Shown: positions 1 through 38,235, counted from the stretch's first letter. The stretch is 51,069 nucleotides of DNA from an uncultured Gammaproteobacteria bacterium (GCA_964612595.1 CAZTFB010000003.1:98272-149340), one strand, 5' to 3'. Numbers and translations: made by a program. Notes: generated by a model from the sequence alone, not told the origin.

Positions 1-155
1 CTGACATAAAAACTGGCACAGTCTTCTCGTTCACTCTAAAAGGCATTGCGGCTGGGTCTGCAATGTTTTCGTTTGATAAAGACCTAACAATAACTGCAAC
101 AAACGGCGTTAATACCCTAGGCAGCGCTGAGTCTGTTACGATCACCGTTCAATAA
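1..155 (+). CDS. cohesin-like domain protein, C-terminal fragment (gene starts upstream of the window)
   Basis: Frame +3 is open from base 3 and reads DIKTGTVFSFTLKGIAAGSAMFSFDKDLTITATNGVNTLGSAESVTITVQ*. This is colinear with the C-terminus of the 3204..3749 protein ([48 protein letters not shown]). The TAA at 153-155 overlaps the next ATG (TAATG). Confidence 0.75.
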   Translation, partial: DIKTGTVFSFTLKGIAAGSAMFSFDKDLTITATNGVNTLGSAESVTITVQ

Positions 156-3151
156 TGAAAATAGCATCACGCATAAACAGACAGAGAGGTGAAGTTGCCT
201 CATTTTTAACCATTGTCTCAATGGTTGTTCTTTCTTTTGGTATTCTTCTTGGTTATCAGTTAAACAGAAATGCAGCACCAATAAATCCAGCTCCCCAAGC
301 AGCTGCTCCCGCTCCATCAAAACCAATTCCTGCGGACGGCGTCGATAGACACGACGAGGTATGTTTTCCTGGTGGCGATAAGAATCAACAAGTACGTGAC
401 AAATATTGCCGAACACGAATGTATCCCAATCGCATAATGAGAGACGTCATTGAAAAAGCTGATGTTCGAGCGAAGCAGGTATTTGAATCAATTTTTAAGT
501 CAACCACCGATCAATCCGTGCGCAATCCTCATCTTTTATCTATAACAAGTGATGATAAGCGTACCCTGATGATTTATGGTGGCTTATGTCTGAATCGTAG
601 CTCACTTAGTGGAAGCGAGCGACTCTCAACTGATGATGTGGAAGTATATATAAGTTTATTTGGTGTACGAAAATATTATGATGATAAAGGTGCTGTTGGC
701 ATCGTCAGCAATGATAAGAATGATGCATTAAAGTACAAAATCGCCGCAGCTGAAGACAAAGCTGGCTCAAACAATACCGATGAACTTTTCGTTGCAAAAG
801 CTCGAGTGGGAGTTTGTACCTTTACAAACGGAAGAGTTGATGTTACTGACTATAAAAATGTCGACAACCCATTGTTGTTTAATATTCAAACAACGAAAGC
901 CAGCATTGAAAGCGCAATCGCACGTGCGGAAAAGGATCCTACACTTAACCAAAAATTCGATAAAAAAGCCTGTGAAGTCTACATTCACCTTAGAGATAAT
1001 ATTACTGTAGGCACAAACAACAAACCCAAAGACACATATAATATATTTAAGATTGATTTGCGTGAATATCTTGGTGACGAAGCTGCTACGATTTGTGATC
1101 CATCAACGACGCCCACACCAACAATAAGTGAGTCTCCTACTCCCACTTCCCCTACTGTAACCATTTCAACCTCACCAACACCAACAGATGAGGAGCGCAG
1201 ACTAGCTTCACCAACACCACAAACAGCCCAATGTTTCGAAAAATGTATTCCAACTACTCAATGTGGAGCAGATCCTTTGACTGGTAAAGCAATGTCCTGT
1301 TTTAACGCTACAAATCTTAATGTTTTGCCACCAATCTTACCAACAGGTGGGCAGGTTGATAACAATATTGATAATCCTTCCAACAGCCTCAAGTTATGCC
1401 AGAAAGGTGATCTCAACTGTCTTTGTCTACCACAAAGATGCCAGTTTAATCCAGAATCATGCACTAATAAATCAGATGCGTGTGAAAAAAATGATGTGCC
1501 AACGCCACTAATAACAAAAATACCTAATGAAACACCAACAGTCCCCACATCGACTCCTCCTATATCAGCCTGTGTCTTTGATGCGCTTGCCTATGTACAG
1601 GAGTGTGCTAGTATCGATCCAAAAACAGGTCAGTGTAAAAAGGATTCCACGGGTCGTTTCATAGCTAAACCAATAGAGAAAGGGGTTCTCACTACATCGT
1701 GGGGTGCAAGCAATAACAAACAGATTGCCGGAGGGCGATATGGCAGCAATCCAGCTACGCCATTTTCATTCATACAAAATAGTCAAGTCCCTGGCGCCTT
1801 TGATAATATAATAAGGCGATTCCCCTACTATAAAGATGCTTCCCTCGCATCTTTAACATATCTTGATTATCATGCAGAATTTCCTATGCCAGCAGGACGC
1901 AATCCACTTGAAGTTGGTTCGCCTGCGGACTTTACGCCAGAGGGCAGATCAAAGAATCCAATACTTATCGCACCCATTAATCAATATCCAGATGAACAGT
2001 ACTTTAACAGAGAAGATGCGCAGGTAAGATTGTATGCAGATTTTGCAAACAAAGGATACAGAGTTGTTCCTGATGGTAACAGAATTGACTATTGTAACAA
2101 TATTCATGATCTGACCGGTGTATATGGATTAGATTGCAATGAGATAGAATTTGAGGCGAATAGAGTTAATCCTAATGTTGATCCAGCTACGAGGGATCCA
2201 CGCGACACAATTGCAGGTCTTACTGTAGGGTGCGGTCAATCAATCGTATACGGTTGGACTCTTCAAAAATGTAATCCCGAACCAGCGGACTATCTTTTTG
2301 TCATAGATGTATCAACATCCATGTCAACCGGTAAAGATCTTTCTGGTGAAGTTAAGCTCGATGCAGCTAAAAAGTCACTCCTTTCATTCATAGATACAGT
2401 ACAAAAGTATAGTAAAGACAGCAGAGCTGCACTTATACAGTTTAGTTCACCAGACAATACGCGAACAGTTAAAGGATTTACGCCTGATCTAGAAAGTGTA
2501 AAGGCCGCTGTCAATTCAAATCTTACGGTTAAACAAGGCACCTGTATCGAGCATGGCATGCAGGAAACCATAAGCTTGATTCAAAGCAACGCCTCATCTA
2601 ACAGAAAAACATATGTGATTTTCCTAACCGATGGACTTCCCAACTGTCCTGATGGAACTCCAAGTCAGGAAAGCATTGCTAGAATTGGTGTGCATGGTAC
2701 TACTTTACGCGGGATGGCAAATGTTACTACGTACAGTATTGGCTATGGAGATCCTAACAAGGAAGGTGTTGGAGCAGACGTAGAACTCTTTAATGTAATC
2801 AAGCTTATAGCTAAGAGTGAAAATCATGCGTTCTCAACAAGCAGAGACGTGGCCATCGGCGACATTTATAAGACTATAGAAACTGAGTTAAATGCTTGTG
2901 CACGCTCCGAAGCAGCATTTGCAAACTACATAACTTCCCAGGATATAAATGGCGATGGCGTCATCAATACCATAGATCTCTTCCTTATATATGATAATTA
3001 CTTTGCACGCGGCCAGAATCTTCCAGAAGATCTTAATGGCGATCAAATTGTTAACTCACTTGATGTGTCGATAATCGTCAACAACATGGGTAAAGTAGTC
3101 CCCCAGGAAAATAATACTGCTCAAAAATCTATTGGTGACGTCTTCAATTAA
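155..3151 (+). CDS. large surface protein: signal-anchor, PT linkers, conserved Cys-bracketed module, vWA/MIDAS domain, C-terminal dockerin pair
   Basis: 998-aa ORF. N-terminal RQRGEVASFLTIVSMVVLSFGILLG hydrophobic segment. PT-rich linkers. FVIDVSTSMS (about 2297-2326) is a DxSxS MIDAS motif, followed by FLTDGLPN. The C-terminus has DINGDGVINTIDL and DLNGDQIVNSLDV (about 2942-3070), two dockerin-type Ca-binding segments. Confidence 0.85.
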   Translation: MKIASRINRQRGEVASFLTIVSMVVLSFGILLGYQLNRNAAPINPAPQAAAPAPSKPIPADGVDRHDEVCFPGGDKNQQVRDKYCRTRMYPNRIMRDVIEKADVRAKQVFESIFKSTTDQSVRNPHLLSITSDDKRTLMIYGGLCLNRSSLSGSERLSTDDVEVYISLFGVRKYYDDKGAVGIVSNDKNDALKYKIAAAEDKAGSNNTDELFVAKARVGVCTFTNGRVDVTDYKNVDNPLLFNIQTTKASIESAIARAEKDPTLNQKFDKKACEVYIHLRDNITVGTNNKPKDTYNIFKIDLREYLGDEAATICDPSTTPTPTISESPTPTSPTVTISTSPTPTDEERRLASPTPQTAQCFEKCIPTTQCGADPLTGKAMSCFNATNLNVLPPILPTGGQVDNNIDNPSNSLKLCQKGDLNCLCLPQRCQFNPESCTNKSDACEKNDVPTPLITKIPNETPTVPTSTPPISACVFDALAYVQECASIDPKTGQCKKDSTGRFIAKPIEKGVLTTSWGASNNKQIAGGRYGSNPATPFSFIQNSQVPGAFDNIIRRFPYYKDASLASLTYLDYHAEFPMPAGRNPLEVGSPADFTPEGRSKNPILIAPINQYPDEQYFNREDAQVRLYADFANKGYRVVPDGNRIDYCNNIHDLTGVYGLDCNEIEFEANRVNPNVDPATRDPRDTIAGLTVGCGQSIVYGWTLQKCNPEPADYLFVIDVSTSMSTGKDLSGEVKLDAAKKSLLSFIDTVQKYSKDSRAALIQFSSPDNTRTVKGFTPDLESVKAAVNSNLTVKQGTCIEHGMQETISLIQSNASSNRKTYVIFLTDGLPNCPDGTPSQESIARIGVHGTTLRGMANVTTYSIGYGDPNKEGVGADVELFNVIKLIAKSENHAFSTSRDVAIGDIYKTIETELNACARSEAAFANYITSQDINGDGVINTIDLFLIYDNYFARGQNLPEDLNGDQIVNSLDVSIIVNNMGKVVPQENNTAQKSIGDVFN

Positions 3152-3166
3152 GCCTCGTATTTTCTC

Positions 3167-3196
3167 TTGACAAACATCTTTAAAACCACGTACAAT
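3167..3196 (+). promoter_or_regulatory. sigma70-type promoter (TTGACA-18 nt-TACAAT) driving a leaderless cohesin-like gene
   Basis: TTGACA at 3167-3172, 18-nt spacer, TACAAT at 3191-3196, ATG at 3204 seven nt downstream. The architecture and the CTTGACAAACA string match the promoter at 12241. Confidence 0.6.
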
Positions 3197-3203
3197 GTTT
3201 CAC

Positions 3204-3749
3204 ATGGATCAATCTAAAACTCTTCAACCTAATAAGAATATAGCCCTCATTGGAATAGTATTTTTTGTATTTGCAGTAAGTCTTATTATGGGACTTATCT
3301 TTGCACAGAAGAAATCCTCACCTACGAATAATAATGCAGAGGAAAATCAGCTTGGCTCAACTCAGCTTATGCTAAAGCCCCAAGTAACCTCACTTCAGAA
3401 AGGTGAAAGTACACAAGTAATGGTTGAGATTGCCGGATCCCCCTCTCAAGCGGCAGATATTGTCATTACCTTCGATCCAAAGCTTCTCAGAGCCTCGGAC
3501 ATAGTAAATGGCGATGTTTTCCCCGACTTACTACGCAGCGAAATAAAAGAGAACCAGCTTATTGTATCCTCAGCCGTCGACCCAAACAATCCTACCAATC
3601 TTAAAACAGGAGTCATATTCAGCTTTACAGTTACTGCAATGGAATCTGGATCAGCTGCACTTGAATTTAATAAAGATCTTACGATTACTGCGCATAGTGG
3701 TACTAACACACTTGGGTCTGCCGAACCAGTTACCATATCCGTAAAATAA
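3204..3749 (+). CDS. membrane-anchored single-cohesin-like protein
   Basis: The ORF track starts at 3195, but that ATG lies inside the -10 box, so ATG 3204 is favoured. One N-terminal TM helix ([21 protein letters not shown]). Cohesin-like signature [20 protein letters not shown] ... [20 protein letters not shown] resembles clostridial cohesins (F-x-YDP-x-x-L ... G-x-F). Confidence 0.75.
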
Positions 3750-3769
3750 AGTAGACGTTAGATGAAACT

Positions 3770-6268
3770 ATGAATATATTTAAAAGAAAAAATCGCCATC
3801 AAAGAGGTGAAGTTGCTTCGTTATTGACCATAGTGTCTATGCTTGTTATTACGGCAGGTATTATTATTGGCACAAACTTCAGTCAATCCTCTCGATCGAT
3901 CAATACTGCCCCTCTTGCTGCAGGTGGCCCAACACCTATAGATCTGGGGTACACAGGCGGGAGATGGTTCGACGGTTCACAAGGTTTGATCTGTGCCGCA
4001 GAATTTACCTGTAATGCTGATCCTATTATTCAAGTACTTGAAATTCGATCTCTTGACGGAACTCAGAAATTTAGCTTAGCCACCGATGCAACAGGTCGTG
4101 GTATTCCAGACGGTTCCCCTATCGGCAAGTCAATAACCGGATCGTGTAGCAACAGATCGTACGGTATTTCTGTAAACTGGGATCCACGAATTGAATACAC
4201 AGATGCGCAAAAAAGAAACATAAAAAGATCGACGGGCTATGATATAAAGAAAGGCCAAATACTATTAAGCGTTCGTCAATCAGCGACAGAACAACGATAC
4301 TTTGTATATGATAGACCTACGTGGCTTACGGGTGGCGAAGATGCAATTTTTTACTTTGAATTTGATGCTAAAACAGCTGGTATTACACGAAGATATTCAC
4401 AGATTGCCAAAGGTAAAAAAGGGTGTGCTCCAGAAATTACTGCTACTGTCACACCAACAACTCCATTGTCTGGAACGCCATCACCAACACCTACAAGCAT
4501 CACATCACCAACACCTTCACCAACCGGAACATTGACGTCAACTCCAATACCATCAGCAACACCAACTGGTACAGCAACATCAACACCTACGTCGACCCTT
4601 ACACCAACACCAAGTTGTGGAGGTCCAACCTGCCCTCCACCAACAAATACGCCAACACCAACACCAAGTTGTGGAGGTCCAACCTGCCCTCCACCAACAA
4701 ATACGCCAACACCAATTGTCGGAAATGCATGTAACTATAACGCCCTCGTATACATCCAAGAATGTACGCCAAACGCTAAAGGTGAATGCGAACGCGACAC
4801 AAAAGGCAACTTCATCGCACGCGCACTACCTGCTTCGGAGCTTGCTAAATTTGGCACTATTAATAATAGGCAACTTGCGGGTGGACGTTATGGATCAGAA
4901 CCCGCTTCACGATTTAGCCTATTCACAGGCAATCCAACCGAAGCAACCAGTATTATCAGCACCTTCCCCTACTTTAGTGGCATTCTGGGATCCCAACTTG
5001 CATACTTTAGGTATGATGTGTCACAACCAGTTCCTGCAGGTGTAGACCCACTGAAAAGGACAACGGGAACCACAGGTATATTTATACCTCCTACATTCAC
5101 ACACCCTAATGAACGCTATCCGAACATGGAAACTGCAAGCGTGCGTCTTACATTAAAAAGACCAGACTATAGAATTGTTCCTAGGGGTAATGAAACAAAG
5201 TATTGTAGAAACAATATTTCCGGTGGTTTTATCGGAGCATGTGACCCATCTGCTTACTCCTATCCTGTAGACAACTCTGTCGATCTATCTAAAAGAGATC
5301 CTCGAGATACCATTAACGGTCTTATCGTCGGCTGTGGGCAAAACATAGTGTATGGATGGACAGTGCAAAAATGTGTATCTAACTTTGACTATGTTTTTGT
5401 CATGGATACCTCTACTTCAATGATAACGACCAGAGACATTACAACAGGCAAACTCAAGAAGGACGCAGCAAGCGATGCATTGCAAAACTTCCTCACAAAT
5501 ATTAAAAATTCTGGAGGTGATCATCGAGCATCACTCCTACAATTCAGTAGCAGAAGAAATACTCGCACTGTCGTCCCCTTTACTAATAATATAGATACCG
5601 TAAAAGCTGCTGCTCTAAATGATTTAAAGTATGAAGAAGGAACATGTATTGAGTGTGGTATTCGCGAAACCATTAACCTCCTTACGAATTTCAGAGCTGA
5701 TAAATCTAGAAACGTAGTAGTGGTATTCCTTACAGATGGCTTACCAAATAGTGATCCAGGAAATCCACGTGCAGGTGGCTACGAAGGCGAAATCACGACA
5801 GAGGCTAACAGACTAAAAGCGATGAATATAGCTGCAACTGGATCCACTCCACCAACTGTCATTGCAATCGGCTATGGCAACCCTGTTGCCGCCTCAAACC
5901 CTGATCCACGAGAGTTAGGTACTGCTGAACTTACTCGCGTGATCAAACTTATATCCACTGATGACACATGGGCATTTTCAACAGCTGCTAACATAAGTAT
6001 TAGTGAGGTATTTAGACGTGTAGAGAGTAGTCTTAACTCTTGTTCAAAATCAGAGGCTCTTCATGCAGCATTCATGAAGGCAAAGGATATTAATGGTGAC
6101 GGAATTATTAACACCGTTGATCTCTTCGCGCTGTACGATACTTACTTCCAACAAGGACAAGGACTTTCGGGTGATTTGAACGACGATGGTGTCATTAATT
6201 CGCTCGATGTTTCCCTCATGATTGGTGATCTGGGTACAGTAGTGAGTCCAGAGCTCGAATCACAATGA
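3770..6268 (+). CDS. large surface protein, paralog of 155..3151: signal-anchor, PT/Cys linker, conserved module, vWA/MIDAS, dockerin pair
   Basis: 832-aa ORF. The N-terminus HQRGEVASLLTIVSMLVITAGIIIG is nearly identical to the 155 ORF. Also has FVMDTSTSM MIDAS, FLTDGLPN, and C-terminal DINGDGIINTVDL ... DLNDDGVINSLDV. Confidence 0.85.
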   Translation: MNIFKRKNRHQRGEVASLLTIVSMLVITAGIIIGTNFSQSSRSINTAPLAAGGPTPIDLGYTGGRWFDGSQGLICAAEFTCNADPIIQVLEIRSLDGTQKFSLATDATGRGIPDGSPIGKSITGSCSNRSYGISVNWDPRIEYTDAQKRNIKRSTGYDIKKGQILLSVRQSATEQRYFVYDRPTWLTGGEDAIFYFEFDAKTAGITRRYSQIAKGKKGCAPEITATVTPTTPLSGTPSPTPTSITSPTPSPTGTLTSTPIPSATPTGTATSTPTSTLTPTPSCGGPTCPPPTNTPTPTPSCGGPTCPPPTNTPTPIVGNACNYNALVYIQECTPNAKGECERDTKGNFIARALPASELAKFGTINNRQLAGGRYGSEPASRFSLFTGNPTEATSIISTFPYFSGILGSQLAYFRYDVSQPVPAGVDPLKRTTGTTGIFIPPTFTHPNERYPNMETASVRLTLKRPDYRIVPRGNETKYCRNNISGGFIGACDPSAYSYPVDNSVDLSKRDPRDTINGLIVGCGQNIVYGWTVQKCVSNFDYVFVMDTSTSMITTRDITTGKLKKDAASDALQNFLTNIKNSGGDHRASLLQFSSRRNTRTVVPFTNNIDTVKAAALNDLKYEEGTCIECGIRETINLLTNFRADKSRNVVVVFLTDGLPNSDPGNPRAGGYEGEITTEANRLKAMNIAATGSTPPTVIAIGYGNPVAASNPDPRELGTAELTRVIKLISTDDTWAFSTAANISISEVFRRVESSLNSCSKSEALHAAFMKAKDINGDGIINTVDLFALYDTYFQQGQGLSGDLNDDGVINSLDVSLMIGDLGTVVSPELESQ
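4601..4708 (+). repeat. perfect tandem duplication, 2 x 54 bp, inside the linker of the 3770 ORF
   Basis: 4601-4654 and 4655-4708 are identical (acaccaacaccaagttgtggaggtccaacctgccctccaccaacaaatacgcca). They encode TPTPSCGGPTCPPPTNTP twice. Confidence 0.9.
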
Positions 6269-7059
6269 AACAATTAGTGCTTGTATCAAGTGCCCTTTTT
6301 CTTGCTTTCGGTATTGTGCTTGGCACACTCTTTCTTCAGTCCGATAAACCTCTCGCTCTCCTTTCAGAAGCAAAAGTTACCACACCACCTTACTGCCCTA
6401 TTAATCTCACTCTTTATGTACATGAAATTAATAAAAACGGTGAAGAGGTTCCCCTTACTATCGAATCTAATCTAGACATCGATGTCTTACAATGGAGTAT
6501 TACTGATGGACAAAACCTTATTTCTCAACCACTTTACTTTAACCAAATTCCGCGAATGGAATATATTCTAAGATCCGATACCCTAACATTTGCATCTTCA
6601 CCCCTTACACAAGACATATATCAAAAAGGTGATGAGACGTTTCTTACGTTAAACTACCAGAATGAATTGTTCAACATTGTTAAACAAGAAATCGCAACAT
6701 GTAGTTCACCCAATAAACCTGAACTTTGTTCTACACTCGGTTCAAATGAAGATGCTGCTTTTCCAACAACTGCACTAGATACCATAAATGGCATTACACT
6801 AGATTGTAATATGCAACTTGAAGCAGGATGGGTCGTACAACGACGACCTTCCGACATAAACCAATCGTCACAGTCAGCAGCGCCATCGACTACTGAATGT
6901 GACTTAAACAATGATGGTACCTGTAATACATTTGACCTATTTATTGTGTTGGATAATTATGGAAAAAATGGGTTAGACCTTCCTGGAGATGTAAATGGAG
7001 ATAATAAAGTAAATGCGCTTGACTATACACTCATGACAAGCAGGATTTCTCTCTTGTAA
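6265..7059 (+). CDS. secreted/anchored protein with C-terminal dockerin pair
   Basis: 264-aa ORF whose start overlaps the previous stop (ATGA). Has an N-terminal TM helix. C-terminus is CDLNNDGTCNTFDLFIVLDNYG ... DVNGDNKVNALDYTLM. Carries the tail of the conserved module (DTINGITLDCNMQLEAGWVVQRR). Confidence 0.75.
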   Translation: MKQLVLVSSALFLAFGIVLGTLFLQSDKPLALLSEAKVTTPPYCPINLTLYVHEINKNGEEVPLTIESNLDIDVLQWSITDGQNLISQPLYFNQIPRMEYILRSDTLTFASSPLTQDIYQKGDETFLTLNYQNELFNIVKQEIATCSSPNKPELCSTLGSNEDAAFPTTALDTINGITLDCNMQLEAGWVVQRRPSDINQSSQSAAPSTTECDLNNDGTCNTFDLFIVLDNYGKNGLDLPGDVNGDNKVNALDYTLMTSRISLL

Positions 7060-7088
7060 TATTGCCTTATCTTATCTAGAATGATCGT

Positions 7089-8774
7089 ATGTACGTCGTA
7101 AAGACTGCTCATATTTTTATAGTATTATTCCTACTTTCCCTGCTCGGTACGGGCTCTGTGGCCTACGGACAATCCAAGCCTGAGATTACCTATGTAAGAA
7201 ACGCCGATATTGGCTTCACTATTTCAAATATTACACCCTCACGTCAATGGGACTATATTCTATATTCTGATTTTTGTTTTAGCGCAAATCCCCCTTCAAA
7301 CGCCAGCGCCTCGGTTCAAGTAACTATGGATCTTAAAGACACCTCAAACCCCTCTCTAGAGAAAGAGGAGGTTATCGGTGCTGCTGTAAACCAGCTCATT
7401 ACAAACCCCGCAACAACTCGTTGTGGCTCTAGTAGGCTCCGCCGATTAACTGCGAATGCACCCTTTAATATTCCTCCTCGTGACAGATGGACTGAAAGTT
7501 GTCCAAGAATAAAGGTTAAAGTTATTACAAAGGGGCCATGGAGACCATTCCCTCAAGAAGACGTGGCCTACATCGAAAGAAGTTTCTTATGCCCTGATGG
7601 TGTTGTCGAAGATCCTGATCCTACTGCCACAACATCACCAAGCAGACCGACGGGAAGTGCTGGTCCAACACGTATCCCCTTTCGACCTCGACCAACATCT
7701 GTACCAACAAGCTCACCTACCCCTGAGCCTAATGCTATTGAAGGTCGTATCACTGTTTTCTCTTGTGCACAGCCAGAAAATGTTACCTTAAGTTATTGTG
7801 ATGATCCAAGTGGTTCAAGCTGTAGCGATATTAACCTATCGCCTACAAAACAAGATCAAGCGATATGGCTCGACGACGAGACGAATGAGCGCACATTTAT
7901 ATATAGATATCGCATAACGAAAGATAAAGCAGGAAATGAGCTCGACACGAGCAAGAAATACACTATATATAACGCAAACGCGCGCATAAAGAGATTTAAG
8001 GATGCAACCATAGAGTCATTCCCTTCACTCAAAGAAGACAAGAAAGAAGTTTCAGTGCCTGGTACACATGATCTTTCTGTGTATGCGGCCGCCCAAACTT
8101 GTGCATGTGTCTTTCATGCACGAGCTCATGTACGTGATGCAGATACGGGAGAAATTACCACCGCTCTTGATGAAGCCCTCGTTCCAGGCAAAGACTTAAC
8201 TTTCGGCAGCGCGAATGATATGCAAATAATTTCAAGAGGTGACAAACCTGTGAGCCCCTTTACAAATGGAATATTAGATGTTTTAGAAAGTCTTCATGAC
8301 ATAAATTACAGCAACACGGTCGGCCCATGGACACCGTACGGCATTGATGGCATGGCACACGTTCGTCTTTATGCACCAGGCTACAGTGTTGTTAAACAGC
8401 GCTGCCAAACAACTGCCCAAAGCCAGGTTCATGCCTGCCCAGGGGGCTCACTCGAAAGAGAGTCAACCTTTACTGATGACCATAACTTTGTGGGTTTCAG
8501 AGTTGCCTGCGGCGTTGATGTATCGTACGACTGGTATATAAGAAAAAATGCAGGGACCGCTGATGTAGCAGTCATGCGTGTGACCAAACCAGAAGATGTT
8601 GACATAAATAATGATGGATTTATAAATACTGCCGATCTTGTTGCTTGTATAGATGAATGGGGTACAGAATCAGGGTCCTATACTTGTGATATAAATAAGG
8701 ATAAAGCAGTAGATGCACTTGATTTATCACTCGTTACCAGTTTGCAAGGCGTAGACGTTAATGAAGCTCAATAA
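7089..8774 (+). CDS. secreted protein with conserved N-terminal domain, PT linker, Cys-bracketed module and dockerin pair
   Basis: 561-aa ORF with a signal peptide (…GTGSVAYGQ). The N-terminal domain is paralogous to the 12883 ORF (RQWDYILYSDFCFSANPPSN vs NRWDYMLSGGLCFTNNPPSN). C-terminus is DINNDGFINTADL ... DINKDKAVDALDLSLV. Confidence 0.8.
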   Translation: MYVVKTAHIFIVLFLLSLLGTGSVAYGQSKPEITYVRNADIGFTISNITPSRQWDYILYSDFCFSANPPSNASASVQVTMDLKDTSNPSLEKEEVIGAAVNQLITNPATTRCGSSRLRRLTANAPFNIPPRDRWTESCPRIKVKVITKGPWRPFPQEDVAYIERSFLCPDGVVEDPDPTATTSPSRPTGSAGPTRIPFRPRPTSVPTSSPTPEPNAIEGRITVFSCAQPENVTLSYCDDPSGSSCSDINLSPTKQDQAIWLDDETNERTFIYRYRITKDKAGNELDTSKKYTIYNANARIKRFKDATIESFPSLKEDKKEVSVPGTHDLSVYAAAQTCACVFHARAHVRDADTGEITTALDEALVPGKDLTFGSANDMQIISRGDKPVSPFTNGILDVLESLHDINYSNTVGPWTPYGIDGMAHVRLYAPGYSVVKQRCQTTAQSQVHACPGGSLERESTFTDDHNFVGFRVACGVDVSYDWYIRKNAGTADVAVMRVTKPEDVDINNDGFINTADLVACIDEWGTESGSYTCDINKDKAVDALDLSLVTSLQGVDVNEAQ

Positions 8775-11700
8775 TAAAGGATCGGTAACGGGTTTGCTTG
8801 TTGCTGGTATTAGTGTTGTTGCGCTCATTGCGACAGTCGTAGGTATCGCTCAAAATAACGCTTCACGAAAAGCATCCGAAGCGGCACTTAACTCAACAGG
8901 TGTCATGTTGCAAGAAAATACCCTTAAAGTAGAGCGTCTTGACGATACTCATCTCGAAATATCAGGTATGATTTGTTACTCCCGCCATCTCCAAAGTGGT
9001 GGAAAAGAAGACTGGACATTATGGGTAACCGACAATCGAGGTAAACCAATGGATGGCGATAATGATGGAAGTCATATTGATGGGGGTCGACTTTCTGTAG
9101 CCGGTAATGGTAGCTTTCCAGCAACCTGTGAGTATGTCGACCGCGCAGCGGGTATTGGAAAAATGCTTGATAAGAATCAAAAACAGCCTCACCGATTTTC
9201 AGTTATTGCGACCTCATCACGACGTTTAACCCCAAGCTACTGTCCTGAGATATACCTCCACTATAGAGGGTCATGGTTCTCGGGCACGCCATTTGCAAAA
9301 ATTGCGCTTGATAAGATCGAGGGTGCCTGTGGACCCACGTCTGAGCCAACACCTACCGACAATCCAACCTCAACAGTACCAACTGATGAGCCCGAAGAAA
9401 CGCCAGCGCCAACTGACATACTCGCAACACCGACCTTTACCCCCACACCAACGCCCGACGGTACTATAAGCGGTCGTATCTCTATCTATGGCTGTAAAAA
9501 ACCAAACCGCGCATCGGTTGATTTTTGTACTGGAGAAACCTGTGATGAACTCAATGGCGGGAAGATTATTTCGCTGCCATTTACTTCCGGCCCATCAGCA
9601 CAAGGCGTTTGGCTTGATGATACAAATGATGATAATACATGGATATACAACTATAGAATAAGTGTCGATAAAGATAATAATCCATTGGAACCATCTAAAA
9701 CCTACTTTTTATCGCGAGCATTGGGGTGGTTTGACAACGATGCGCTGTTTATTGATTCTGAGCGAGAGCAAGCTGAAAAGCTACGAGTGAAACCAGGCAC
9801 ACAGAGAGACTTTAAGGTTTATGCCTCTCGCACATGTGGTTGTGCATTTGATGCTGTTGCTTATGTGAAAGACACAAGTGGCAATATCATTACTGAGCTC
9901 GATAATAAACCTGGCATATACGGAACTGCCAATAATAAACAGTTTTATGATCGCGGCGACAAACCCGTGGAATCAGTCCCATTCAATAATTTGGGAAGCA
10001 ATCCTGGTCGTATAGATGTGCATATTACTGACTTAGGTGATTTTAGAGACTCCCGTACATGGGGTCGTGACGCACTAGCTGCTGTAAAGCTCTATGCTGA
10101 TGACTATCGCGTAGTAAAACAAGAATGCACAAGCAAAAATGCAAGTACACCGTCGTGTCCTGGATATACCACAACATGGAGTGAAACTGATATGACTAAA
10201 CTGCGCAATCCGAAGATATTTGAAAACCTTCGAGTTGCATGTAATACAAATCTTGAGTATGGTTGGATCATCGAAAAGATTCCTCCTACCCCTACTCCAC
10301 AGCCCCCAGCAGCACAACCACCAGTGGGTGGAGCACCGATTGGCTCAATAGCATGCGCACTACGTGACGACAACAATGCGAATGCAGCACAAAACGAAGG
10401 TTGTAAACCACGCAACTTCAGAATTAAAGAAATAAAAGAGCGAACTGCTAATCTTGAGTGGGATATTGCAGACAACTGTCCAACGTTTGTACGCGGTACC
10501 GATCGCTACTGGATAATTGTTAAAGATAAGGACACAGGTGAGATCGTCGCTTCTCGGAAAGGAATGAAAGACGAAGATGCTGGTGTAAAAACTAGTGATC
10601 GCAACCCAGGAGAACCCCCACACCAAGTCAGTGTTGTACGTAGAGAATATTATGATGAAGGCCAAGAGTATACAGCTTATCTTTACTCCTACTTAGATAA
10701 TAATGCCTCCTGTATGAGTAGTCCAGTATCGCTCAACTTTACGGGTGTTGCGCGCGATGACTCTGAAGAACCTGAGGAGCCAGGTGACCCAGGTAGTGGT
10801 GGCGGTGTATGTCCACAGTGGTGTGCAAACGAATCATACTGTAGAAGTCAAGGTTACGTACCAAAAGATCCACCGGCTGGTGAGCACTGTAGCGTCGCTG
10901 GCGACAAGTGGTGTTGTCCACCTGGAACCGAACCCCCTGGCGGTGGCGGTAGTGGCCCAGGCAACCCTGGCCAGCCAGGAAATCCTCCAGGACCAGGAGG
11001 ACAAGGCGTATGTCCCGCTAACTCTCGAGGCATCCCGGGGTTCGAGGGAGAGTCATTTACAAAATTTAGCCCAGAAAGTGATCGTGAGGTATGTTTGAGC
11101 TATTATCAAGGCACACAACCTGTTGATGCCAGTGATGGTGGATTCTGTTGTAGAACGGGCTCATCAAGCAATCCTGGACGTGGAGGCTCAGGGAGCAATG
11201 AATATGGAACATGCGATACTGCACAGAATGAGTATGGTATCGGTGGCCGACCACCAGCATTTAAATATGCTAATCTTGCTGAACGACAGTGTCGCGATAT
11301 GGGTGGAGACTGTAGTGCTCAAAAATCTCGCAATGGCTCTGGATACTGTAGCAAGGTCGCTGCGCCAACATCCACAGCAGTATGCCCATCAACCCATAAC
11401 AAGATCCTAGTTCCTCCTGGTGTGTGTGCTCCAGATGATATTGTACGTGTACGTAACTTGGGTAAAAATGAGGTATGCTGTAAAAAACAACCCTCATCAC
11501 CAGAAATTCCTTCTTGCGCTTCAAAAGGAATTGATAAGTCCGGTTCAAACGAAAGATGTAGCGCATATGCAGTGAAACTTGAAGGACAAGAGTTTATTTG
11601 TAAAAGTGACAGTGGTCTTACACATCGATGTTGTAAAGCAGATGCTAAAGTAGACGATAGAACTGCTGGAAATGCCAAGTGTATTCCACTTGAGCTGCCT

Positions 11701-12240
11701 AAAAGCTTGTTTACTGTGCGCTTTAAGGGTACGACTGAGTTTGCTGATGCAATAACAGTTAACCCCCTCACCGTGTGCAAAGGGGTAACATGTAAAGAGA
11801 TAGTTGGTGATATCCATATACAATTCAAGCCATGGGGTGGTGAATACTCTTTTGATGTGCCACTCGAAAATTTAGATGCTGGTAAGCTCACAATTGGATG
11901 CAACATATCTCTTTCCGATTCTAGATTTACCCCCTGTCGAACTTTCACTATCGAAATACCTAAAGATAGTGGAGGTTGTCGAGAATACCTCATAAGCATT
12001 AAAGACAATAAAATGACTAAAAATGAACCCGGTGGGAATTGTAAGGCCGGTACTTCAGCCCAGGTTGAACCTGAGCAGCTCGATGTGAATGGAGACGGCG
12101 TGATAAATACCATCGATCTACAATACCTCTACGACGAATACGGCGCCGAAGGCGCAACAACATCAGATGTAAATAAAGATGGTACGGTCAATGCGCTCGA
12201 TCTCTCCGTATTTATGGACTCTTTCGGGACCGAGCTCTAA
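8761..12240 (+). CDS. very large surface protein: anchor, PT linker, conserved module, FN3-like module, four Cys-rich CC-motif repeats, dockerin pair
   Basis: 1159-aa ORF. FN3-like stretch PRNFRIKEIKERTANLEWD...YTAYLYSY. Repeated modules end in WCCPPG, FCCRTG, VCCKKQ and RCCKAD. C-terminus is DVNGDGVINTIDLQYLYDEYGAEGATTSDVNKDGTVNALDLSVFM. Confidence 0.85.
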   Translation: MKLNNKGSVTGLLVAGISVVALIATVVGIAQNNASRKASEAALNSTGVMLQENTLKVERLDDTHLEISGMICYSRHLQSGGKEDWTLWVTDNRGKPMDGDNDGSHIDGGRLSVAGNGSFPATCEYVDRAAGIGKMLDKNQKQPHRFSVIATSSRRLTPSYCPEIYLHYRGSWFSGTPFAKIALDKIEGACGPTSEPTPTDNPTSTVPTDEPEETPAPTDILATPTFTPTPTPDGTISGRISIYGCKKPNRASVDFCTGETCDELNGGKIISLPFTSGPSAQGVWLDDTNDDNTWIYNYRISVDKDNNPLEPSKTYFLSRALGWFDNDALFIDSEREQAEKLRVKPGTQRDFKVYASRTCGCAFDAVAYVKDTSGNIITELDNKPGIYGTANNKQFYDRGDKPVESVPFNNLGSNPGRIDVHITDLGDFRDSRTWGRDALAAVKLYADDYRVVKQECTSKNASTPSCPGYTTTWSETDMTKLRNPKIFENLRVACNTNLEYGWIIEKIPPTPTPQPPAAQPPVGGAPIGSIACALRDDNNANAAQNEGCKPRNFRIKEIKERTANLEWDIADNCPTFVRGTDRYWIIVKDKDTGEIVASRKGMKDEDAGVKTSDRNPGEPPHQVSVVRREYYDEGQEYTAYLYSYLDNNASCMSSPVSLNFTGVARDDSEEPEEPGDPGSGGGVCPQWCANESYCRSQGYVPKDPPAGEHCSVAGDKWCCPPGTEPPGGGGSGPGNPGQPGNPPGPGGQGVCPANSRGIPGFEGESFTKFSPESDREVCLSYYQGTQPVDASDGGFCCRTGSSSNPGRGGSGSNEYGTCDTAQNEYGIGGRPPAFKYANLAERQCRDMGGDCSAQKSRNGSGYCSKVAAPTSTAVCPSTHNKILVPPGVCAPDDIVRVRNLGKNEVCCKKQPSSPEIPSCASKGIDKSGSNERCSAYAVKLEGQEFICKSDSGLTHRCCKADAKVDDRTAGNAKCIPLELPKSLFTVRFKGTTEFADAITVNPLTVCKGVTCKEIVGDIHIQFKPWGGEYSFDVPLENLDAGKLTIGCNISLSDSRFTPCRTFTIEIPKDSGGCREYLISIKDNKMTKNEPGGNCKAGTSAQVEPEQLDVNGDGVINTIDLQYLYDEYGAEGATTSDVNKDGTVNALDLSVFMDSFGTEL

Positions 12241-12270
12241 TTGACAAACAATTCACAACATATCTATAAT
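12241..12270 (+). promoter_or_regulatory. sigma70-type promoter (TTGACA-18 nt-TATAAT) driving a leaderless cohesin-like gene
   Basis: TTGACA at 12241-12246, 18-nt spacer, TATAAT at 12265-12270, ATG at 12277 six nt downstream. The TTG used as a start in the ORF track is the -35 hexamer. Confidence 0.65.
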
Positions 12271-12276
12271 GAATGC

Positions 12277-12879
12277 ATGGACACTCTCGCTGTTACTGTG
12301 CGTAAAGATCTTAAGGATTTTTTTACCCTTAGCCCCCAGGTAAAGTTCTTACTCACCATACAGCTCATCATTCTTTTCATTCTCAGCATTCTTATTGGTG
12401 TCATGTTTTCGCCCAAGTTCAAACAGAATGTCCTTCATCAAACGATACCAAATACCACCTTGAAGAACACACAAGACACGGGTGTGCGCCTTGTCTTGTT
12501 GCCTCAAGATAAATTCATCAAGCTTGGTGATGAAATCACTTTTTATGTCACTATGAGCGGAGACCCCGCATATGCAGTAGATACCGTCATTCAATATGAC
12601 CCAACTGTACTCCTTGTGAGGTCGGTTGAAAACGGAGACGTTTTTGATCGCATCATCTTAAATCAACTCGAATCTGGTTTAATCACCTTCTCTGCTGCTT
12701 ATGAACCTGGAAAAAATACATTTAAAAAAGAAGGTATTGTGCTAACGTTTAAGGCAAAAGCGTTAAAAAAGTCCCAAGAAACAATCATTCATTTCGACCT
12801 AGATCGCACAATAGCTGCCCAGGATGGCAAAAACATATTACATACGGCAGAGCCAGCCATTTTACATATATTTGATTAA
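12277..12879 (+). CDS. membrane-anchored single-cohesin-like protein
   Basis: TM helix FLLTIQLIILFILSILIGVMF. Cohesin-like signature VIQYDPTVLLVRSVENGDVF ... GIVLTFKAKALKKSQETIIHF. The start is moved from TTG 12241 to ATG 12277 (see promoter). Confidence 0.75.
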   Translation: MDTLAVTVRKDLKDFFTLSPQVKFLLTIQLIILFILSILIGVMFSPKFKQNVLHQTIPNTTLKNTQDTGVRLVLLPQDKFIKLGDEITFYVTMSGDPAYAVDTVIQYDPTVLLVRSVENGDVFDRIILNQLESGLITFSAAYEPGKNTFKKEGIVLTFKAKALKKSQETIIHFDLDRTIAAQDGKNILHTAEPAILHIFD

Positions 12880-12882
12880 ACA

Positions 12883-14997
12883 ATGAAAACTTTATCACTC
12901 GCCGTTATAGCACTCATGACAATAGGCCTTTTTGTCGGCGTGTCGTTTGTCACCAATCCACGATTACAGCAGCGTACCACCGAGGCATCAGTACCTCCTG
13001 AGCTTGTAGAAGTTACAAATCAGGATGTATCTATCGAGTTTACTAGCCTTGCTCCTCATAACCGATGGGACTACATGCTATCTGGTGGGCTTTGTTTTAC
13101 CAATAACCCGCCTTCAAACGGAAAATGGAAAGTCGCCGTCTATCACGATGACCTACTGAGCCCTGAAATTCCCATCGGTGCAAGTGTACAAAAAGCCGTA
13201 GGCAATCCATCAACGGCACGCTGCCGAGATGGTTCCCCCATGCTTTTATTTAATGCACCAATAAATATGCCTCCCTCGAGTAGATTGCCCGAAGGTGCAG
13301 ATTGTTTACCCGCCGGAAATCTTGATGTGCGTGTCGATACCGCTGGACCGCCATGGCAGATTCAGCCAGAAGTAGCAACAATTGACCGTGGCTATTTTTG
13401 TCCAGATGAACCTAACCCTACTGGAGATCCAAACAGTACCCCTACCCCTGCCGCTCCAGGGACAATAACTGTGAATCTCCAACTCGAAGGTGATTGGAAA
13501 TCAAACTTTAATGAATTTCAAGCTACAGCGATGACATGCGACTTCGCTGAGGACGGTCTCCCCGATTGGGAAACGTGCGGTTCAGGAGGTAATAAAACCT
13601 CAAACACAGATGTGACACGTAAAGGAAGTGGTAGCTCGATAAATAAAACGGTGAATCTTACTATTTCAGACACTCCTGGAGGACCAAAGGCGCTCGTCCT
13701 TTTCTATGACTATAAACGAACCGACGGAAAAGCAGATAATACTGGTGTCAAGGTTGAACCTATAAATAATACCAACTGTGGACCTTCATATGTAGATTTT
13801 GGAGCTTATGTCTGTGGTGTTGAACTTGGTGCTGCTGGTCTTACAACCACATTTAAGCTCAAAATACCAACACCAAATGCAACAACTTATGAATTGCGCC
13901 TTGGAAAGGAAGAAGCAGAAACTCGTGAAATTCTTGATCCGTGTACACATGCAATAGATTCAAATAATAAACAAGGTACAGTCGCAACCGGCGAACGGGG
14001 TCAGTGTAGTTCTGTAGCAGTAGGTAATAATTTTAAAGTCACATATCATAATAGCGGAAGCACTGAAGAAAAATTATACTGGTTGCTTGGTCGATGTAAT
14101 GGAACCTATGATGAAAATGAGGGCTATTGTGAGATAAACGCACCAGTTGAAACAACTGAGCTCGTGCAAAATTTCTTTGAGCTTGAAAATGCGACAACGC
14201 TTGCCGCTGGACAGGTTCTTGTGTGTACCTTTGATAAATCTAAATATCCAACTACGGAAAATGAGGCAAACGTGCGAAGTTCTGGAGCTGTGGTTTGCGA
14301 GAGTGTTGCACCTACACCTACACCTATTAACTCCCCCACGCCAACCGTTGCGCCAACAGCTACCAATACTCCAACCCCAACAGCATCAACTAATCCGCCA
14401 ACGGCGACTCCCACCCCAAGCGGTGCTGAGTCAGACTATTTCACAGGTATTTCTTTCTACAATGGTTCATCAAAAGCCGTCACAAGTATTACTACAATAA
14501 CCTGTTATGGCCCAGATAGATCGCAATGTGTATCTGAACTTGTCAACACCTCCATTCAGCCTCGCCAAAGGGGCACTGTTGAGACTAATCTCGTTTTACC
14601 ACGTAATGTGAACGAATATAGTGTGAAGTGTCGTGTCACTTTTGAAGGTAGTTCATCGCCTATAAATTGTCCGAACGAGGTTGTAACCCCTATTCGACAA
14701 AATGTGATCTATCGTATTGTCGCATCTGAGGCTGGAGGAATATCGGGCCAAGGCGTCACAGAGATTGATGCATGTGATGTAAATAAAGATTCCTGTTGTA
14801 ATGCAAATGATTTCTCAGTGGTTGCAACCAAGTATGCACAAGAGGTTGAGCCTACAGCTCAAAATTCCTCAGATATTAATGGAGACGGCATAATTAATGG
14901 ATTCGATCTTGTATTTACTCAAGCTAATTTCGGCAAGGGATTAGGATGCCAGTTCAATCTTGCTCCAGAATTGAAACCTGAACTGCGTCGGGATTAG
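12883..14997 (+). CDS. secreted protein with conserved N-terminal domain, PT linker and dockerin-like pair
   Basis: 704-aa ORF with an N-terminal TM/signal segment. The N-terminal domain is paralogous to the 7089 ORF. PT linker APTPTPINSPTPTVAPTATNTPTPT. C-terminus is DVNKDSCCNANDFSVV ... DINGDGIINGFDLVF. Confidence 0.8.
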   Translation: MKTLSLAVIALMTIGLFVGVSFVTNPRLQQRTTEASVPPELVEVTNQDVSIEFTSLAPHNRWDYMLSGGLCFTNNPPSNGKWKVAVYHDDLLSPEIPIGASVQKAVGNPSTARCRDGSPMLLFNAPINMPPSSRLPEGADCLPAGNLDVRVDTAGPPWQIQPEVATIDRGYFCPDEPNPTGDPNSTPTPAAPGTITVNLQLEGDWKSNFNEFQATAMTCDFAEDGLPDWETCGSGGNKTSNTDVTRKGSGSSINKTVNLTISDTPGGPKALVLFYDYKRTDGKADNTGVKVEPINNTNCGPSYVDFGAYVCGVELGAAGLTTTFKLKIPTPNATTYELRLGKEEAETREILDPCTHAIDSNNKQGTVATGERGQCSSVAVGNNFKVTYHNSGSTEEKLYWLLGRCNGTYDENEGYCEINAPVETTELVQNFFELENATTLAAGQVLVCTFDKSKYPTTENEANVRSSGAVVCESVAPTPTPINSPTPTVAPTATNTPTPTASTNPPTATPTPSGAESDYFTGISFYNGSSKAVTSITTITCYGPDRSQCVSELVNTSIQPRQRGTVETNLVLPRNVNEYSVKCRVTFEGSSSPINCPNEVVTPIRQNVIYRIVASEAGGISGQGVTEIDACDVNKDSCCNANDFSVVATKYAQEVEPTAQNSSDINGDGIINGFDLVFTQANFGKGLGCQFNLAPELKPELRRD

Positions 14998-15340: not shown

Positions 15341-16054
15341 ATGAGCATGTTTGCACCATTAATACAGTACTTAATTCGTAGCGGTATTTCAGAGTACACC
15401 ATACTCATGTTACTCTTTTTGCCCGTTGTGACTGTTCTCATTACTATCGCGCGCTACGTTATTGGTTGGAGAACCATAAACATCTATACGACAGTATTAC
15501 TTTCATACGCGTTATTCGATCTTGGTTACATTCGCAAAGGCTCAATAGACTATGCCAGTACTATTTTTTATGGGAGTCTGTTATTCGTCATCACATCAAC
15601 TATCGCAATTATGGTTCACTCTTGGCTACATAGTATTCGTCTCCATTATCTCTCAAAAGTAAGTATAGTCACATCTTTCGCAACAGTTGGTGTATTTGCT
15701 CTTCTTTACGCATCAACATTTTTAAAAGAAATTTCACTCAACGATATAACACCCCTCACAATTTTATTATTTATAATTTCAATTGAAGCTCTTGTGAAGT
15801 CATATGTTCGCCACGGTATGAAAAAAGCTCTCAATCTTATGGTATTGACAATCATTCTTACAGCCCTTATTTTTATGCTTATGAGCCAAGAAGTCCTTCA
15901 AAATGCGCTCATTGACTATCCAGAATTATCTCTCCTTATGATAGTGGCAAGTTTTGTTGTCGGAAAATGGCGTGGCCTAAAGCTAGTAGAATACGTACGT
16001 TTTAGAAATATCTTAAGCCAAAACTCCTATGATTCTGAAGATATTAGCGAATAG
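15341..16054 (+). CDS. polytopic (about 7 TM) membrane protein, first gene of the ATP-grasp cluster
   Basis: 237-aa ORF that is hydrophobic throughout. An extended -10 (TGATATAAT, 15332-15340) sits immediately upstream. The second ATG at 15347 lies 6 nt after the -10, so the true leaderless start may be 15347. Confidence 0.75.
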   Translation: MSMFAPLIQYLIRSGISEYTILMLLFLPVVTVLITIARYVIGWRTINIYTTVLLSYALFDLGYIRKGSIDYASTIFYGSLLFVITSTIAIMVHSWLHSIRLHYLSKVSIVTSFATVGVFALLYASTFLKEISLNDITPLTILLFIISIEALVKSYVRHGMKKALNLMVLTIILTALIFMLMSQEVLQNALIDYPELSLLMIVASFVVGKWRGLKLVEYVRFRNILSQNSYDSEDISE

Positions 16055-17465: not shown

Positions 17466-18322
17466 GAAACTACGTAATACTCTCCTCGAAACCCGAACAT
17501 GTATCTAAGTATAAATTTAAACAGCACACGTATTCTTATTCAAATGTATCAATATTTCTTAATCCAGCAGACAAAAAACAAAAAATCAAGGTGCTGATTA
17601 ATGGTACAGACGTCACTACATTTAATTTCGTGTATTTTCGTACTTGGAGAAAGTATGAAAACATTGCAACCCCGATAGCCTTATGCTTAAAGTCACTCAA
17701 AATTCCCTTTATTGATTCTGAAGTTGCTCGCAATCTATTAGATTCAAAGTCATTTGAGTATGTCACATTTATTCAAAATAATCTTCCAATTCCTCGCACA
17801 GTCATCGCTCATGCAGTACAATTAACATCTTTAGAACATGAATTGATGTCGTTTTTGACATACCCATTTATTCTTAAACTATCTGAAGCTAAACAAGGAC
17901 TAGATAACTATCTAGTTCGCTCACATAAAGAACTTTGCGAAATTCTTACATCCTACTCAGACGACCAGCTTTTTATAGCACAAGAATTTATTCCTAATGT
18001 AAGCGATTACCGATTGGTCATGACAAATTATGCATTATCCTACGCATACCAGAGAATACGAAGTGCGGACTCGCCTTCCCACCTTAACAACATATCGCAG
18101 GGAGCAAAGCGAAGAAGAGTCGCGAACATTACAGCGATACATGAACTCACTCTATTGGCTGCAAAGGCGAGCAAATTGCTTCACAGAGAAATATGTGGTG
18201 TTGACATTATTATTGATGCAAAAACCCAAAAGCCATATTTGTTAGAAGCAAACTCATCACCGCAACTTACCTATCTTCCAGTTCTTAAAAAAGTTAAAGC
18301 ATTTCTCAGCACATATGAATAA
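17462..18322 (+). CDS. RimK-like ATP-grasp ligase (paralog 1)
   Basis: 286-aa ORF with an ATGA overlap. Signatures: FILKLSEAKQGLDNYLV, FIAQEFIPNVSDYRLVM, ICGVDIIIDAKTQKPYLLEANSSPQL. Confidence 0.75.
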   Translation: MRNYVILSSKPEHVSKYKFKQHTYSYSNVSIFLNPADKKQKIKVLINGTDVTTFNFVYFRTWRKYENIATPIALCLKSLKIPFIDSEVARNLLDSKSFEYVTFIQNNLPIPRTVIAHAVQLTSLEHELMSFLTYPFILKLSEAKQGLDNYLVRSHKELCEILTSYSDDQLFIAQEFIPNVSDYRLVMTNYALSYAYQRIRSADSPSHLNNISQGAKRRRVANITAIHELTLLAAKASKLLHREICGVDIIIDAKTQKPYLLEANSSPQLTYLPVLKKVKAFLSTYE

Positions 18323-38210: not shown

Positions 38211-38235
38211 GACCATTTCTGTATAATAAAATCGT

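Follow-up and report, generated by a model that had tools for sequence, protein, structure and literature searches.

A conserved cohesin–dockerin locus as a candidate non-cellulosomal cell-surface display system in a putative Roizmanbacterium

The DNA analysed here, hereafter the window, is a stretch of 51,069 nt (GCA_964612595.1 CAZTFB010000003.1:98272-149340), with positions counted from its first letter. At its left end, positions 1-14997, lies a locus of genes encoding cohesin-bearing anchor proteins (A0–A2) and dockerin-bearing payload proteins (P1–P6). Nine open reading frames (ORFs) occupy these first ~15 kb in the same orientation and tightly packed, and their coordinates were confirmed. 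Their order, 5′ to 3′, is A0 - P1 - A1 - P2 - P3 - P4 - P5 - A2 - P6. Further genes related to the locus lie on both strands of the window, and the features are as follows (aa, amino acids; TM, transmembrane; VWA domains are given with their metal-ion-dependent adhesion site, MIDAS).

3-155, plus strand: A0, a single-cohesin protein with a TM anchor, 191 aa at full length; the window edge cuts it so that its C-terminal 50 aa lie inside.
155-3151, plus strand: P1, a 998-aa payload with a VWA domain with MIDAS and a C-terminal dockerin.
3167-3196, plus strand: A1 promoter, TTGACA-18-TACAAT, 7 nt 5′ of the ATG at 3204, matching 11/12 consensus positions.
3204-3749, plus strand: A1, a 181-aa anchor with one cohesin at about nt 3357-3746.
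3770-6268, plus strand: P2, an 832-aa payload and paralogue of P1, with a VWA domain at nt 5393-5833 and a dockerin at nt 6086-6241.
6265-7059, plus strand: P3, a 264-aa payload with a dockerin at nt 6901-7056.
7089-8774, plus strand: P4, a 561-aa payload with three beta-sandwich regions and a dockerin at nt 8601-8756.
8761-12240, plus strand: P5, an 1159-aa payload with a dockerin at nt 12082-12237.
12241-12270, plus strand: A2 promoter, TTGACA-18-TATAAT, 6 nt 5′ of the ATG at 12277, matching 12/12 consensus positions.
12277-12879, plus strand: A2, a 200-aa anchor with a cohesin at about nt 12478-12876.
12883-14997, plus strand: P6, a 704-aa payload with a dockerin at nt 14776-14940.
23761-25200 and 22427-23773, minus strand: two cassettes; as read from the translations, both have a signal peptide, then the Rhs C-terminal core motif up to DPxG, then a hydrophobic C-terminus rich in Gly and Ala.
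25169-30256, minus strand: Rhs/YD-repeat protein of 1695 aa whose N-terminal part holds a dockerin (aa 70-122, nt 29891-30049), a probable seventh payload.
38236-38952, plus strand: sortase gene (Pfam Sortase, 83 bits), encoding the candidate enzyme for a cohesin with an LPETG motif encoded upstream of the window.

A preliminary description of this DNA had recognized three small proteins, each with one TM helix and a cohesin-like signature, and our searches agree for all three. Against the Pfam Cohesin family (PF00963, gathering score 24.1 bits), A2 (ORF 12241/12277-12879) scored 41.4 bits (E 2e-10) and A1 (ORF 3195/3204-3749) scored precisely that threshold value, 24.1 bits (E 4.6e-5). A0 had no Pfam match; its fragment in the window shares 60% identity with the C-terminal end of A1 and was detected by a local cohesin hidden Markov model (HMM) at E 8.5e-13. 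A Logan contig, L095, overlaps window positions 1-4630 with 0 mismatches and reaches farther upstream; the same strain is present in runs SRR15237799 and SRR15237815. On this contig A0 is a complete protein of 191 aa, 49% identical to A1, with a cohesin and the N-terminal TM helix that is not visible in the window. A1 and A2 are 30% identical (BLASTP E 1e-21), and A1 orthologues are likewise called at 181 aa. All three anchors follow one plan: a short cytoplasmic N-terminal helix leads into a single TM helix, and a variable linker of ~25 residues connects this to the only cohesin. Multi-cohesin scaffoldins were found neither in the window nor in syntenic loci, where only single-cohesin proteins occur.

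An AlphaFold2 (AF2) model of A2, built from a 39-sequence alignment, reached a predicted local distance difference test (pLDDT) score of 96-98 across the cohesin ectodomain. When the PDB was searched with this model using Foldseek, all of the top 37 matches were cohesins (37/37). The best was CaCohA2 (6kgf_C; E 1.2e-10, TM-score 0.78, root-mean-square deviation (rmsd) 2.4 Å), and the leading matches had TM-scores of 0.76-0.79 and rmsd of 2.2-2.4 Å. A2, the anchor modelled, is predicted to have the nine-stranded beta-sandwich with jelly-roll topology of the cohesin fold. Among its fold matches are PDB 4dh2 (Coh-OlpC) and cohesins of non-cellulosomal type from Archaeoglobus fulgidus and Clostridium perfringens. 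A single-sequence search of the PDB with A2 returned nothing, and only the family profile got to cohesins (1aoh, E 4.7e-4).

In the anchors, the cytoplasmic N-terminus and the membrane-spanning helix are better conserved than the cohesin itself, with the pattern TLxPQxKFLL...FxxSxxxGxxFSPKF (window about 3230-3320 and 12330-12420). Within the FxxSxxxG portion in the membrane, one Gly is invariant and the Phe and Ser are nearly so. Such a motif hints at helix–helix packing, either with a membrane partner or through oligomerisation. A perfect or near-perfect sigma-70 consensus promoter with an 18-nt spacer stands 6-7 nt 5′ of the ATG in all three anchor genes; that of A0, TTGACA-18-TAAAAT, lies on L095 at about 4765-4810. 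Among the loci of relatives, the A1 promoter is kept in L087 and L088, and the A2 promoter in L087, L088 and L089. Promoters this close to the ATG imply separate, probably leaderless, anchor transcripts inside the operon, and the anchors can, judging from this arrangement, be produced independently of the payloads. The P5 dockerin, the P5 stop codon and A2 share one reading frame.

The six large proteins interleaved with the anchors do end in dockerins, as first described. With a gathering score of 22.9 bits for Pfam Dockerin_1 (PF00404), all six (6/6) scored higher, between 25.8 and 37.2 bits (P1 32.9, P2 25.8, P3 37.2, P4 28.3, P5 36.6 and P6 26.4). A scan of the six-frame translation of the window for the 12-residue calcium-loop motif gave 14 matches versus 0.01 in 200 shuffles. 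These matches are invariably paired, with loop starts 28-32 residues apart. Six pairs are the dockerins of P1–P6 (12 matches), and the seventh belongs to the Rhs protein on the minus strand. In 14/14 loops all five ligand positions (1, 3, 5, 9 and 12) are filled, in the form D-x-N/D-x-D/N-x-x-x-N/D-x-x-D. Searches of the PDB with the family profiles of P4 and P5 returned dockerins only. Dockerins from different genomes group by payload rather than by genome, and the signature peculiar to a payload is retained from one genome to the next, which suggests payload-specific constraints and possibly specificity for particular anchors.

The MIDAS-containing VWA domains noticed earlier are present in P1 and P2, both of which match the Pfam profile and possess the full DxSxS...T...D site. 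The three families proposed for profile checking (PF00963, PF00404 and VWA) were all found above or at threshold. P1 comprises a hydrophobic segment (aa 12-36), a Cys-rich region, proline/threonine-rich (PT) linkers at aa 310-349 and 449-469, a beta module shared with P2, the VWA domain (aa 714-897, nt 2294-2845) and the dockerin (aa 930-981, nt 2942-3097). Its VWA domain scored 55.6 bits with VWA_2 and 44.4 bits with VWA, and the MIDAS residues are D718/S720/S722/T796/D826. P2 aligns with P1 along 533 aa at 41% identity and has an N-terminal segment, a 98-aa PT/S-rich linker (aa 220-317), the shared beta module, a VWA domain (VWA_2 48.7 bits; MIDAS residues D546/S548/S550/T625/D656) and the dockerin.

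P4 begins with a classical signal peptide (..SVAYG|QS). Its AF2 model, from a 10-sequence alignment, is all-beta with a mean pLDDT of 60.8, and Foldseek returned weak, low-TM-score matches to Ig/Fn3-like multi-domain proteins (integrin legs, RbmA, PitB) and no enzyme fold. The N-terminal 510 aa of P5 are conserved and common to P4, and its Cys- and Gly-rich middle holds 46 Cys; aligned orthologues are highly variable in the centre and conserved at both ends. P6 also shares its N-terminal domain with P4 and has a PT linker at aa 473-518. The FN3 module that had been recognized among the payloads was not recovered, as residues 511-663 of P5 matched no Pfam family at E≤10, nor did the payload fragments without family assignment yield any match at that cut-off. 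PT/S-rich linkers, previously ascribed to the payloads as a group, occur in 5/6 and are missing from P3 (6265-7059). The description of the payloads as Cys-rich holds, with 2.2-4.0% Cys compared with about 0% in the anchors.

No glycoside hydrolase (GH), carbohydrate-binding module (CBM) or SLH family was detected by Pfam at E≤1 in P1–P6, in agreement with the preliminary description, and no GH, polysaccharide lyase (PL), carbohydrate esterase (CE) or CBM family was detected at the same level in the seven payloads of the window. The sole CBM-type listing, Agarase_CBM in P4 (E 0.2, 11.7 bits vs a cut-off of 26.3), does not constitute a credible CBM family. A recurrent motif, [KR]-G-[ES]-[IV]-[AS]-x-x-L, opens the hydrophobic segment of P1, P2 and P5 (window 155-270, 3770-3890 and 8761-8860). 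It is also found in payloads of relatives (L081, L089), including non-orthologous ones, and is reminiscent of TadG-like proteins and prepilins. The N-termini of P1, P2 and P5 showed no Pfam TadE/Tad or pilin family at E≤10 and no Glu at +5, and some orthologues carry an ordinary signal peptide in place of this N-terminus.

Window MreB is 68-80% identical to that of Roizmanbacteria/Microgenomates metagenome-assembled genomes, and on this marker we assign the host to Roizmanbacterium, a reduced Candidate Phyla Radiation (CPR)/Patescibacteria bacterium. The closest relative with the locus is represented by a closed chromosome, OZ246401.1, 938,475 bp in length, which accords with the reduced bacterium envisaged earlier. 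The order P1-A1-P2-P3-P4-P5-A2-P6 is intact in OZ246401.1, with proteins 55-79% identical, and also in Microgenomates OLB23. Two RIFCSP Roizmanbacteria, as well as CAZKVU01 and CAZTOA01, have it with rearrangement, at protein identities that go down to about 30-40%. Gene order is thus conserved in at least six related genomes, and P6 lies directly 3′ of A2 in every genome examined. The retention of anchor and payload order at ~30-40% protein identity argues for a functional unit. In these relatives the locus sits among stable housekeeping genes (Pth, AP endonuclease, ATP-grasp). An A2-type pattern built from a 14-sequence alignment matched 4/185,579 species representatives, and an exhaustive HMMER search with the A2 family found 463 representatives at E≤1e-10; among the best 150 of these 463, about 120 were full-length matches of 180-220 aa.

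The locus extends beyond the nine ORFs in both directions. Downstream, the Rhs protein scored 43.4 bits with Pfam RHS_repeat (gathering score 22), and its N-terminal dockerin was detected by a local dockerin HMM at E 1.3e-13 and scored 17.6 bits with Dockerin_1, under the gathering score of 22.9. This dockerin is kept in the OZ246401.1 orthologue, where both cassettes are also present in the same layout. The Rhs C-terminal core motif (..DPxG) is carried not by the shell polypeptide but by these two separate downstream ORFs with their own signal peptides, for which no Pfam family was found at E≤1. Shell and separately encoded core/C-terminus cassettes apparently make up a split Rhs system.

Upstream of the window and shortly before A0, L095 encodes a 263-aa protein (3452-4243) composed of a signal peptide, a cohesin-like domain, a PT-rich stalk, LPETG and a hydrophobic tail. 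Its C-terminus, ending ..SSLPETGNIEPTTVAIAIGLGLTIISIIIKMLL, has the features of an LPXTG sorting signal, namely the motif, a hydrophobic segment and a short charged tail, and the genome encodes a sortase. The cohesin-like domain was detected by the local HMM at E 6.8e-9 and scored 19 bits with Pfam Cohesin, below the cut-off. We regard this protein as a probable sortase-anchored cohesin and a fourth anchor. Next to it, at L095 4240-4767, is a gene for a protein of 175 aa with one dockerin-like calcium loop at its end (DINQDGCVLLND), and both proteins also occur in L092 and L093. With this extension, about 35 kb of DNA contain four genes of cohesin type and seven dockerin genes. A divergently oriented gene at the upstream edge of the locus (L095 2662-3369, minus strand; L092 7833-8564, minus strand) encodes a protein of glutaredoxin fold whose long tail is rich in Pro and Ala, possibly relevant to the Cys-rich payloads.

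Immediately 3′ of the locus, positions 15341-19208 encode a 7TM_transglut membrane protein and three ATP-grasp proteins (RimK-like/sugar-transfer-associated); the 7TM_transglut gene, together with one to three ATP-grasp genes, occupies this place in every syntenic relative examined. Traces of mobile elements surround the locus, namely a Gp49-like (HigB-type toxin) gene at 20732-21091, a putative phage metallopeptidase gene at 32193-32579 and an IS200-like transposase gene at 41983-42561. A gene for a PEGA-domain protein adjoins the sortase gene (36975-38952), and a WecG/TagA-type glycosyltransferase is encoded at 34730-35485; each points to a Gram-positive-like envelope. Positions 39002-41970 and 43507-45240 encode ATP-citrate-lyase-like subunits (Citrate_bind/ATP-grasp; CoA-ligase and citrate-synthase domains) and a 2-oxoacid:ferredoxin oxidoreductase, which are unusual in a CPR genome. 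Copies of the first of these genes are 70% (OZ246401.1) and 63% (CAZTOA01) identical, indicating a lineage trait rather than a chimera. From about 47400 to 51069 the GC content is 0.55, compared with about 0.40-0.47 elsewhere, and ORFs overlap on both strands. An Rfam scan of this GC-rich right end gave no match, and it is possibly foreign DNA or an assembly join.

From the domain identities, the cohesin fold of A2, the calcium ligands and the conserved gene order, we infer that the locus encodes a non-cellulosomal cohesin–dockerin cell-surface display system of Roizmanbacterium. We consider this reading probable as a whole, including the pairing, topology, surface exposure and attachment role that it assigns to the proteins. 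In such a system, A0, A1 and A2, three paralogous membrane proteins of ~190 aa, would serve as sockets, each offering one cohesin on its linker of ~25 residues. The fourth socket would be the cohesin on the PT-rich stalk, joined to the wall by sortase via LPETG. Seven secreted proteins with two-loop dockerins would act as plugs: two with VWA/MIDAS, four Cys-rich and predicted all-beta without recognisable catalytic domain, and one Rhs shell. After Sec export, the dockerins would bind cohesins in a Ca2+-dependent manner, so that payloads would be held non-covalently at the envelope with their PT linkers projecting outward. MIDAS sites and beta-sandwich modules might then engage ligands presented by a partner cell or surface, and the docked Rhs cage, along with the separate toxin-like cassettes, may damage the partner. 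Interaction with a partner cell or surface is, on present sequence evidence, the most likely role in a CPR bacterium of ~0.9 Mb. In the Saccharibacterium Southlakia epibionticum, a dockerin-domain envelope protein, SEML1_0315, is essential, and its authors suggest host adhesion or glycan targeting (PMC10633639).

Several observations weigh against this display system. A1 only just reaches the Pfam Cohesin threshold, and three further modules, those of A0, the LPETG protein and the Rhs N-terminus, stay under their Pfam cut-offs. The anchor linkers are short, possibly placing the cohesins below the wall. A fused P5-dockerin/A2 chain modelled with AF2 gave an excellent cohesin, a dockerin with pLDDT <50 and no interface information. 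The N-terminal hydrophobic segments of several payloads may be uncleaved, which would make the payloads themselves membrane proteins. The label 'adhesin-like' derives from VWA/MIDAS in two payloads and a low-confidence all-beta model of another, and is weakly founded for four payloads. Finally, a P4 orthologue in a syntenic locus (P0050, L085 10001-12775, GCA_964556475.1) contains a PF00544 pectate-lyase domain between its conserved beta modules and its dockerin, so that enzyme payloads are possible within the system. The display apparatus proposed in the preliminary description is sustained in its modules, single-cohesin membrane proteins and dockerin-tagged payloads, and needs amendment in that it is larger than claimed and one relative's payload has a pectate lyase.

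A more far-reaching version of the display reading can be put forward tentatively, although we think it rather doubtful. Interchangeable, fast-evolving, dockerin-tagged host-binding proteins and a docked Rhs cage, mounted on fixed anchored cohesin sockets, would form a contact-dependent organelle of attachment and attack, in which the dockerin signature of each payload would encode its socket and hence its depth in the envelope. If true, this would be the first natural use of cohesin–dockerin pairing in an interbacterial parasitic or episymbiotic interaction. The literature consulted, mostly without subscription journals and hence weak evidence, contained no conserved cohesin-anchor/dockerin-payload operon in CPR bacteria and no description of VWA or Rhs cargo.

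Alternatively, cohesin–dockerin contacts might build the envelope, tying wall-spanning or S-layer-like proteins to the membrane for cell integrity, whatever the partner. Conservation of the anchor N-terminus and TM helix beyond that of the cohesin, with its FxxSxxxG pattern, would suit fixed membrane partners; the housekeeping neighbourhood is stable in all relatives; and the Saccharibacterium dockerin protein is essential in co-culture (PMC10633639). The highly variable middle of P5 and the gain or loss of a domain in P4 are, however, more typical of interaction surfaces than of lattices. VWA/MIDAS and Rhs, moreover, are ligand-binding and toxin-delivery modules, and we consider an envelope-building role unlikely.

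It appears quite unlikely, too, that the locus encodes a minimal, divergent polysaccharide-degrading complex, a true cellulosome analogue whose unassigned payload regions are unrecognised carbohydrate-active or carbohydrate-binding modules for plant, algal or host-envelope glycans. Large stretches of P1, P5 and P6 do lack family assignment, and the pectate lyase in P0050 would fit this reading. In an SR1 genome, genes for a 'cellulosome anchoring protein' and for a protein resembling dockerins were taken to serve carbon degradation (PMC3812714). Yet the seven window payloads are without GH, PL, CE or CBM at the level searched, profile searches of the PDB led to dockerins only, no multi-cohesin scaffoldin accompanies them, and the payload domains that can be identified are VWA and Rhs.

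The modules might also not pair at all, the dockerins being calcium-binding stabilising modules or modules for other targets, and the small cohesin proteins binding something else. Many non-cellulolytic genomes hold cohesin or dockerin modules without a known partner (PMC11557425), and pairing at the present locus is deduced from its genes, the fused model having given no docking information. We find this improbable in view of the interleaved, co-oriented arrangement of the four cohesin-type and seven dockerin genes, its persistence at 30-40% identity and the calcium ligands kept in every loop.

VWA modules occur on TadG proteins and type IV pilins. A reading of the VWA payloads as adhesins of a pilus-associated, TadG-like or modular-pilin-like kind, with [KR]-G-[ES]-[IV]-[AS]-x-x-L as a prepilin-type signal and the dockerin secondary, is very improbable: the motif does recur in P1, P2, P5 and relatives' non-orthologous payloads, and type IV pili drive Saccharibacteria episymbiosis (PMC11623550), but the pilin families and the Glu at +5 are missing as noted above, the window holds no pilus assembly genes, and orthologues exchange this N-terminus for an ordinary signal peptide.

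Returning to the display system, its value lies partly in what it offers for study. Host recognition and attachment in uncultivated CPR bacteria are largely unknown apart from type IV pili, and the locus provides a small, conserved candidate set. Four putative sockets and seven putative plugs, the latter including two that carry metal-dependent adhesion domains and another that bears an Rhs cage, are expressible and could be tested pairwise in vitro without cultivation. The cohesin–dockerin principle would gain a new mode of envelope anchoring, through an N-terminal TM helix in which an SxxxG-type motif is conserved, along with new classes of cargo. The locus could also yield orthogonal calcium-dependent affinity pairs for protein engineering.

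Single-cohesin anchoring proteins are known from cellulosome producers, among them OlpA and OlpC of Clostridium thermocellum (SLH) and ScaE of Ruminococcus flavefaciens (sortase signal). Like these, the present locus has one cohesin per envelope-attached protein, which would hold single dockerin proteins at the surface, and the upstream LPETG cohesin-like protein together with the sortase gene recalls ScaE in particular. In contrast, three of the four anchors here are predicted to be held by an N-terminal TM helix, without SLH or sortase. Cellulosome producers further differ in that the present locus has no primary multi-cohesin scaffoldin, CBM or dockerin-borne GH, and its CPR host has a genome of ~0.9 Mb. 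We considered the term 'cellulosome' and rejected it because three defining features fail: a multi-cohesin scaffoldin, dockerin-borne carbohydrate-active enzymes in the window, and a CBM.

VWA-tipped adhesins include Gram-positive pilus tip adhesins, TadG and VWA-bearing type IV pilins. P1 and P2 resemble them in bearing a VWA domain with full MIDAS on a long stalk-like protein, and differ in their putative attachment through a C-terminal dockerin, with no pilus or sortase isopeptide. The Rhs protein likewise shares with Rhs/YD polymorphic toxins a long RHS-repeat shell and DPxG core motifs followed by variable C-termini, whereas here the shell has an N-terminal dockerin, and the core-end and toxin-like parts are separate ORFs with signal peptides.

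Use of cohesins and calcium-binding dockerins outside cellulose breakdown has precedents in the Archaeoglobus fulgidus cohesin (PDB 2xdh) and the glycosidase/toxin complexes of Clostridium perfringens (PDB 2vo8, 2jh2, 2ozn/2jnk), all of which are among our fold or sequence matches. C. perfringens, however, joins secreted enzymes to one another and not to a membrane receptor, and neither organism has VWA/Rhs cargo or an interleaved operon. Closer in architecture are presumably non-cellulolytic Firmicutes such as Lachnoclostridium sp. MSJ-17, whose membrane-helix 'scaffoldins' also combine a single cohesin with a TM helix, alongside many dockerin proteins other than plant-fibre enzymes (PMC11557425). 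Their TM helices are C-terminal and their genes scattered, whereas the Roizmanbacterium anchors have an N-terminal, strongly conserved helix and share a single conserved operon with payloads that include VWA and Rhs cargo. SEML1_0315 of the cultivated S. epibionticum is similarly described as bearing a dockerin on a cell-envelope protein of an epibiotic CPR bacterium, but the main text of that paper mentions no cohesin (PMC10633639).

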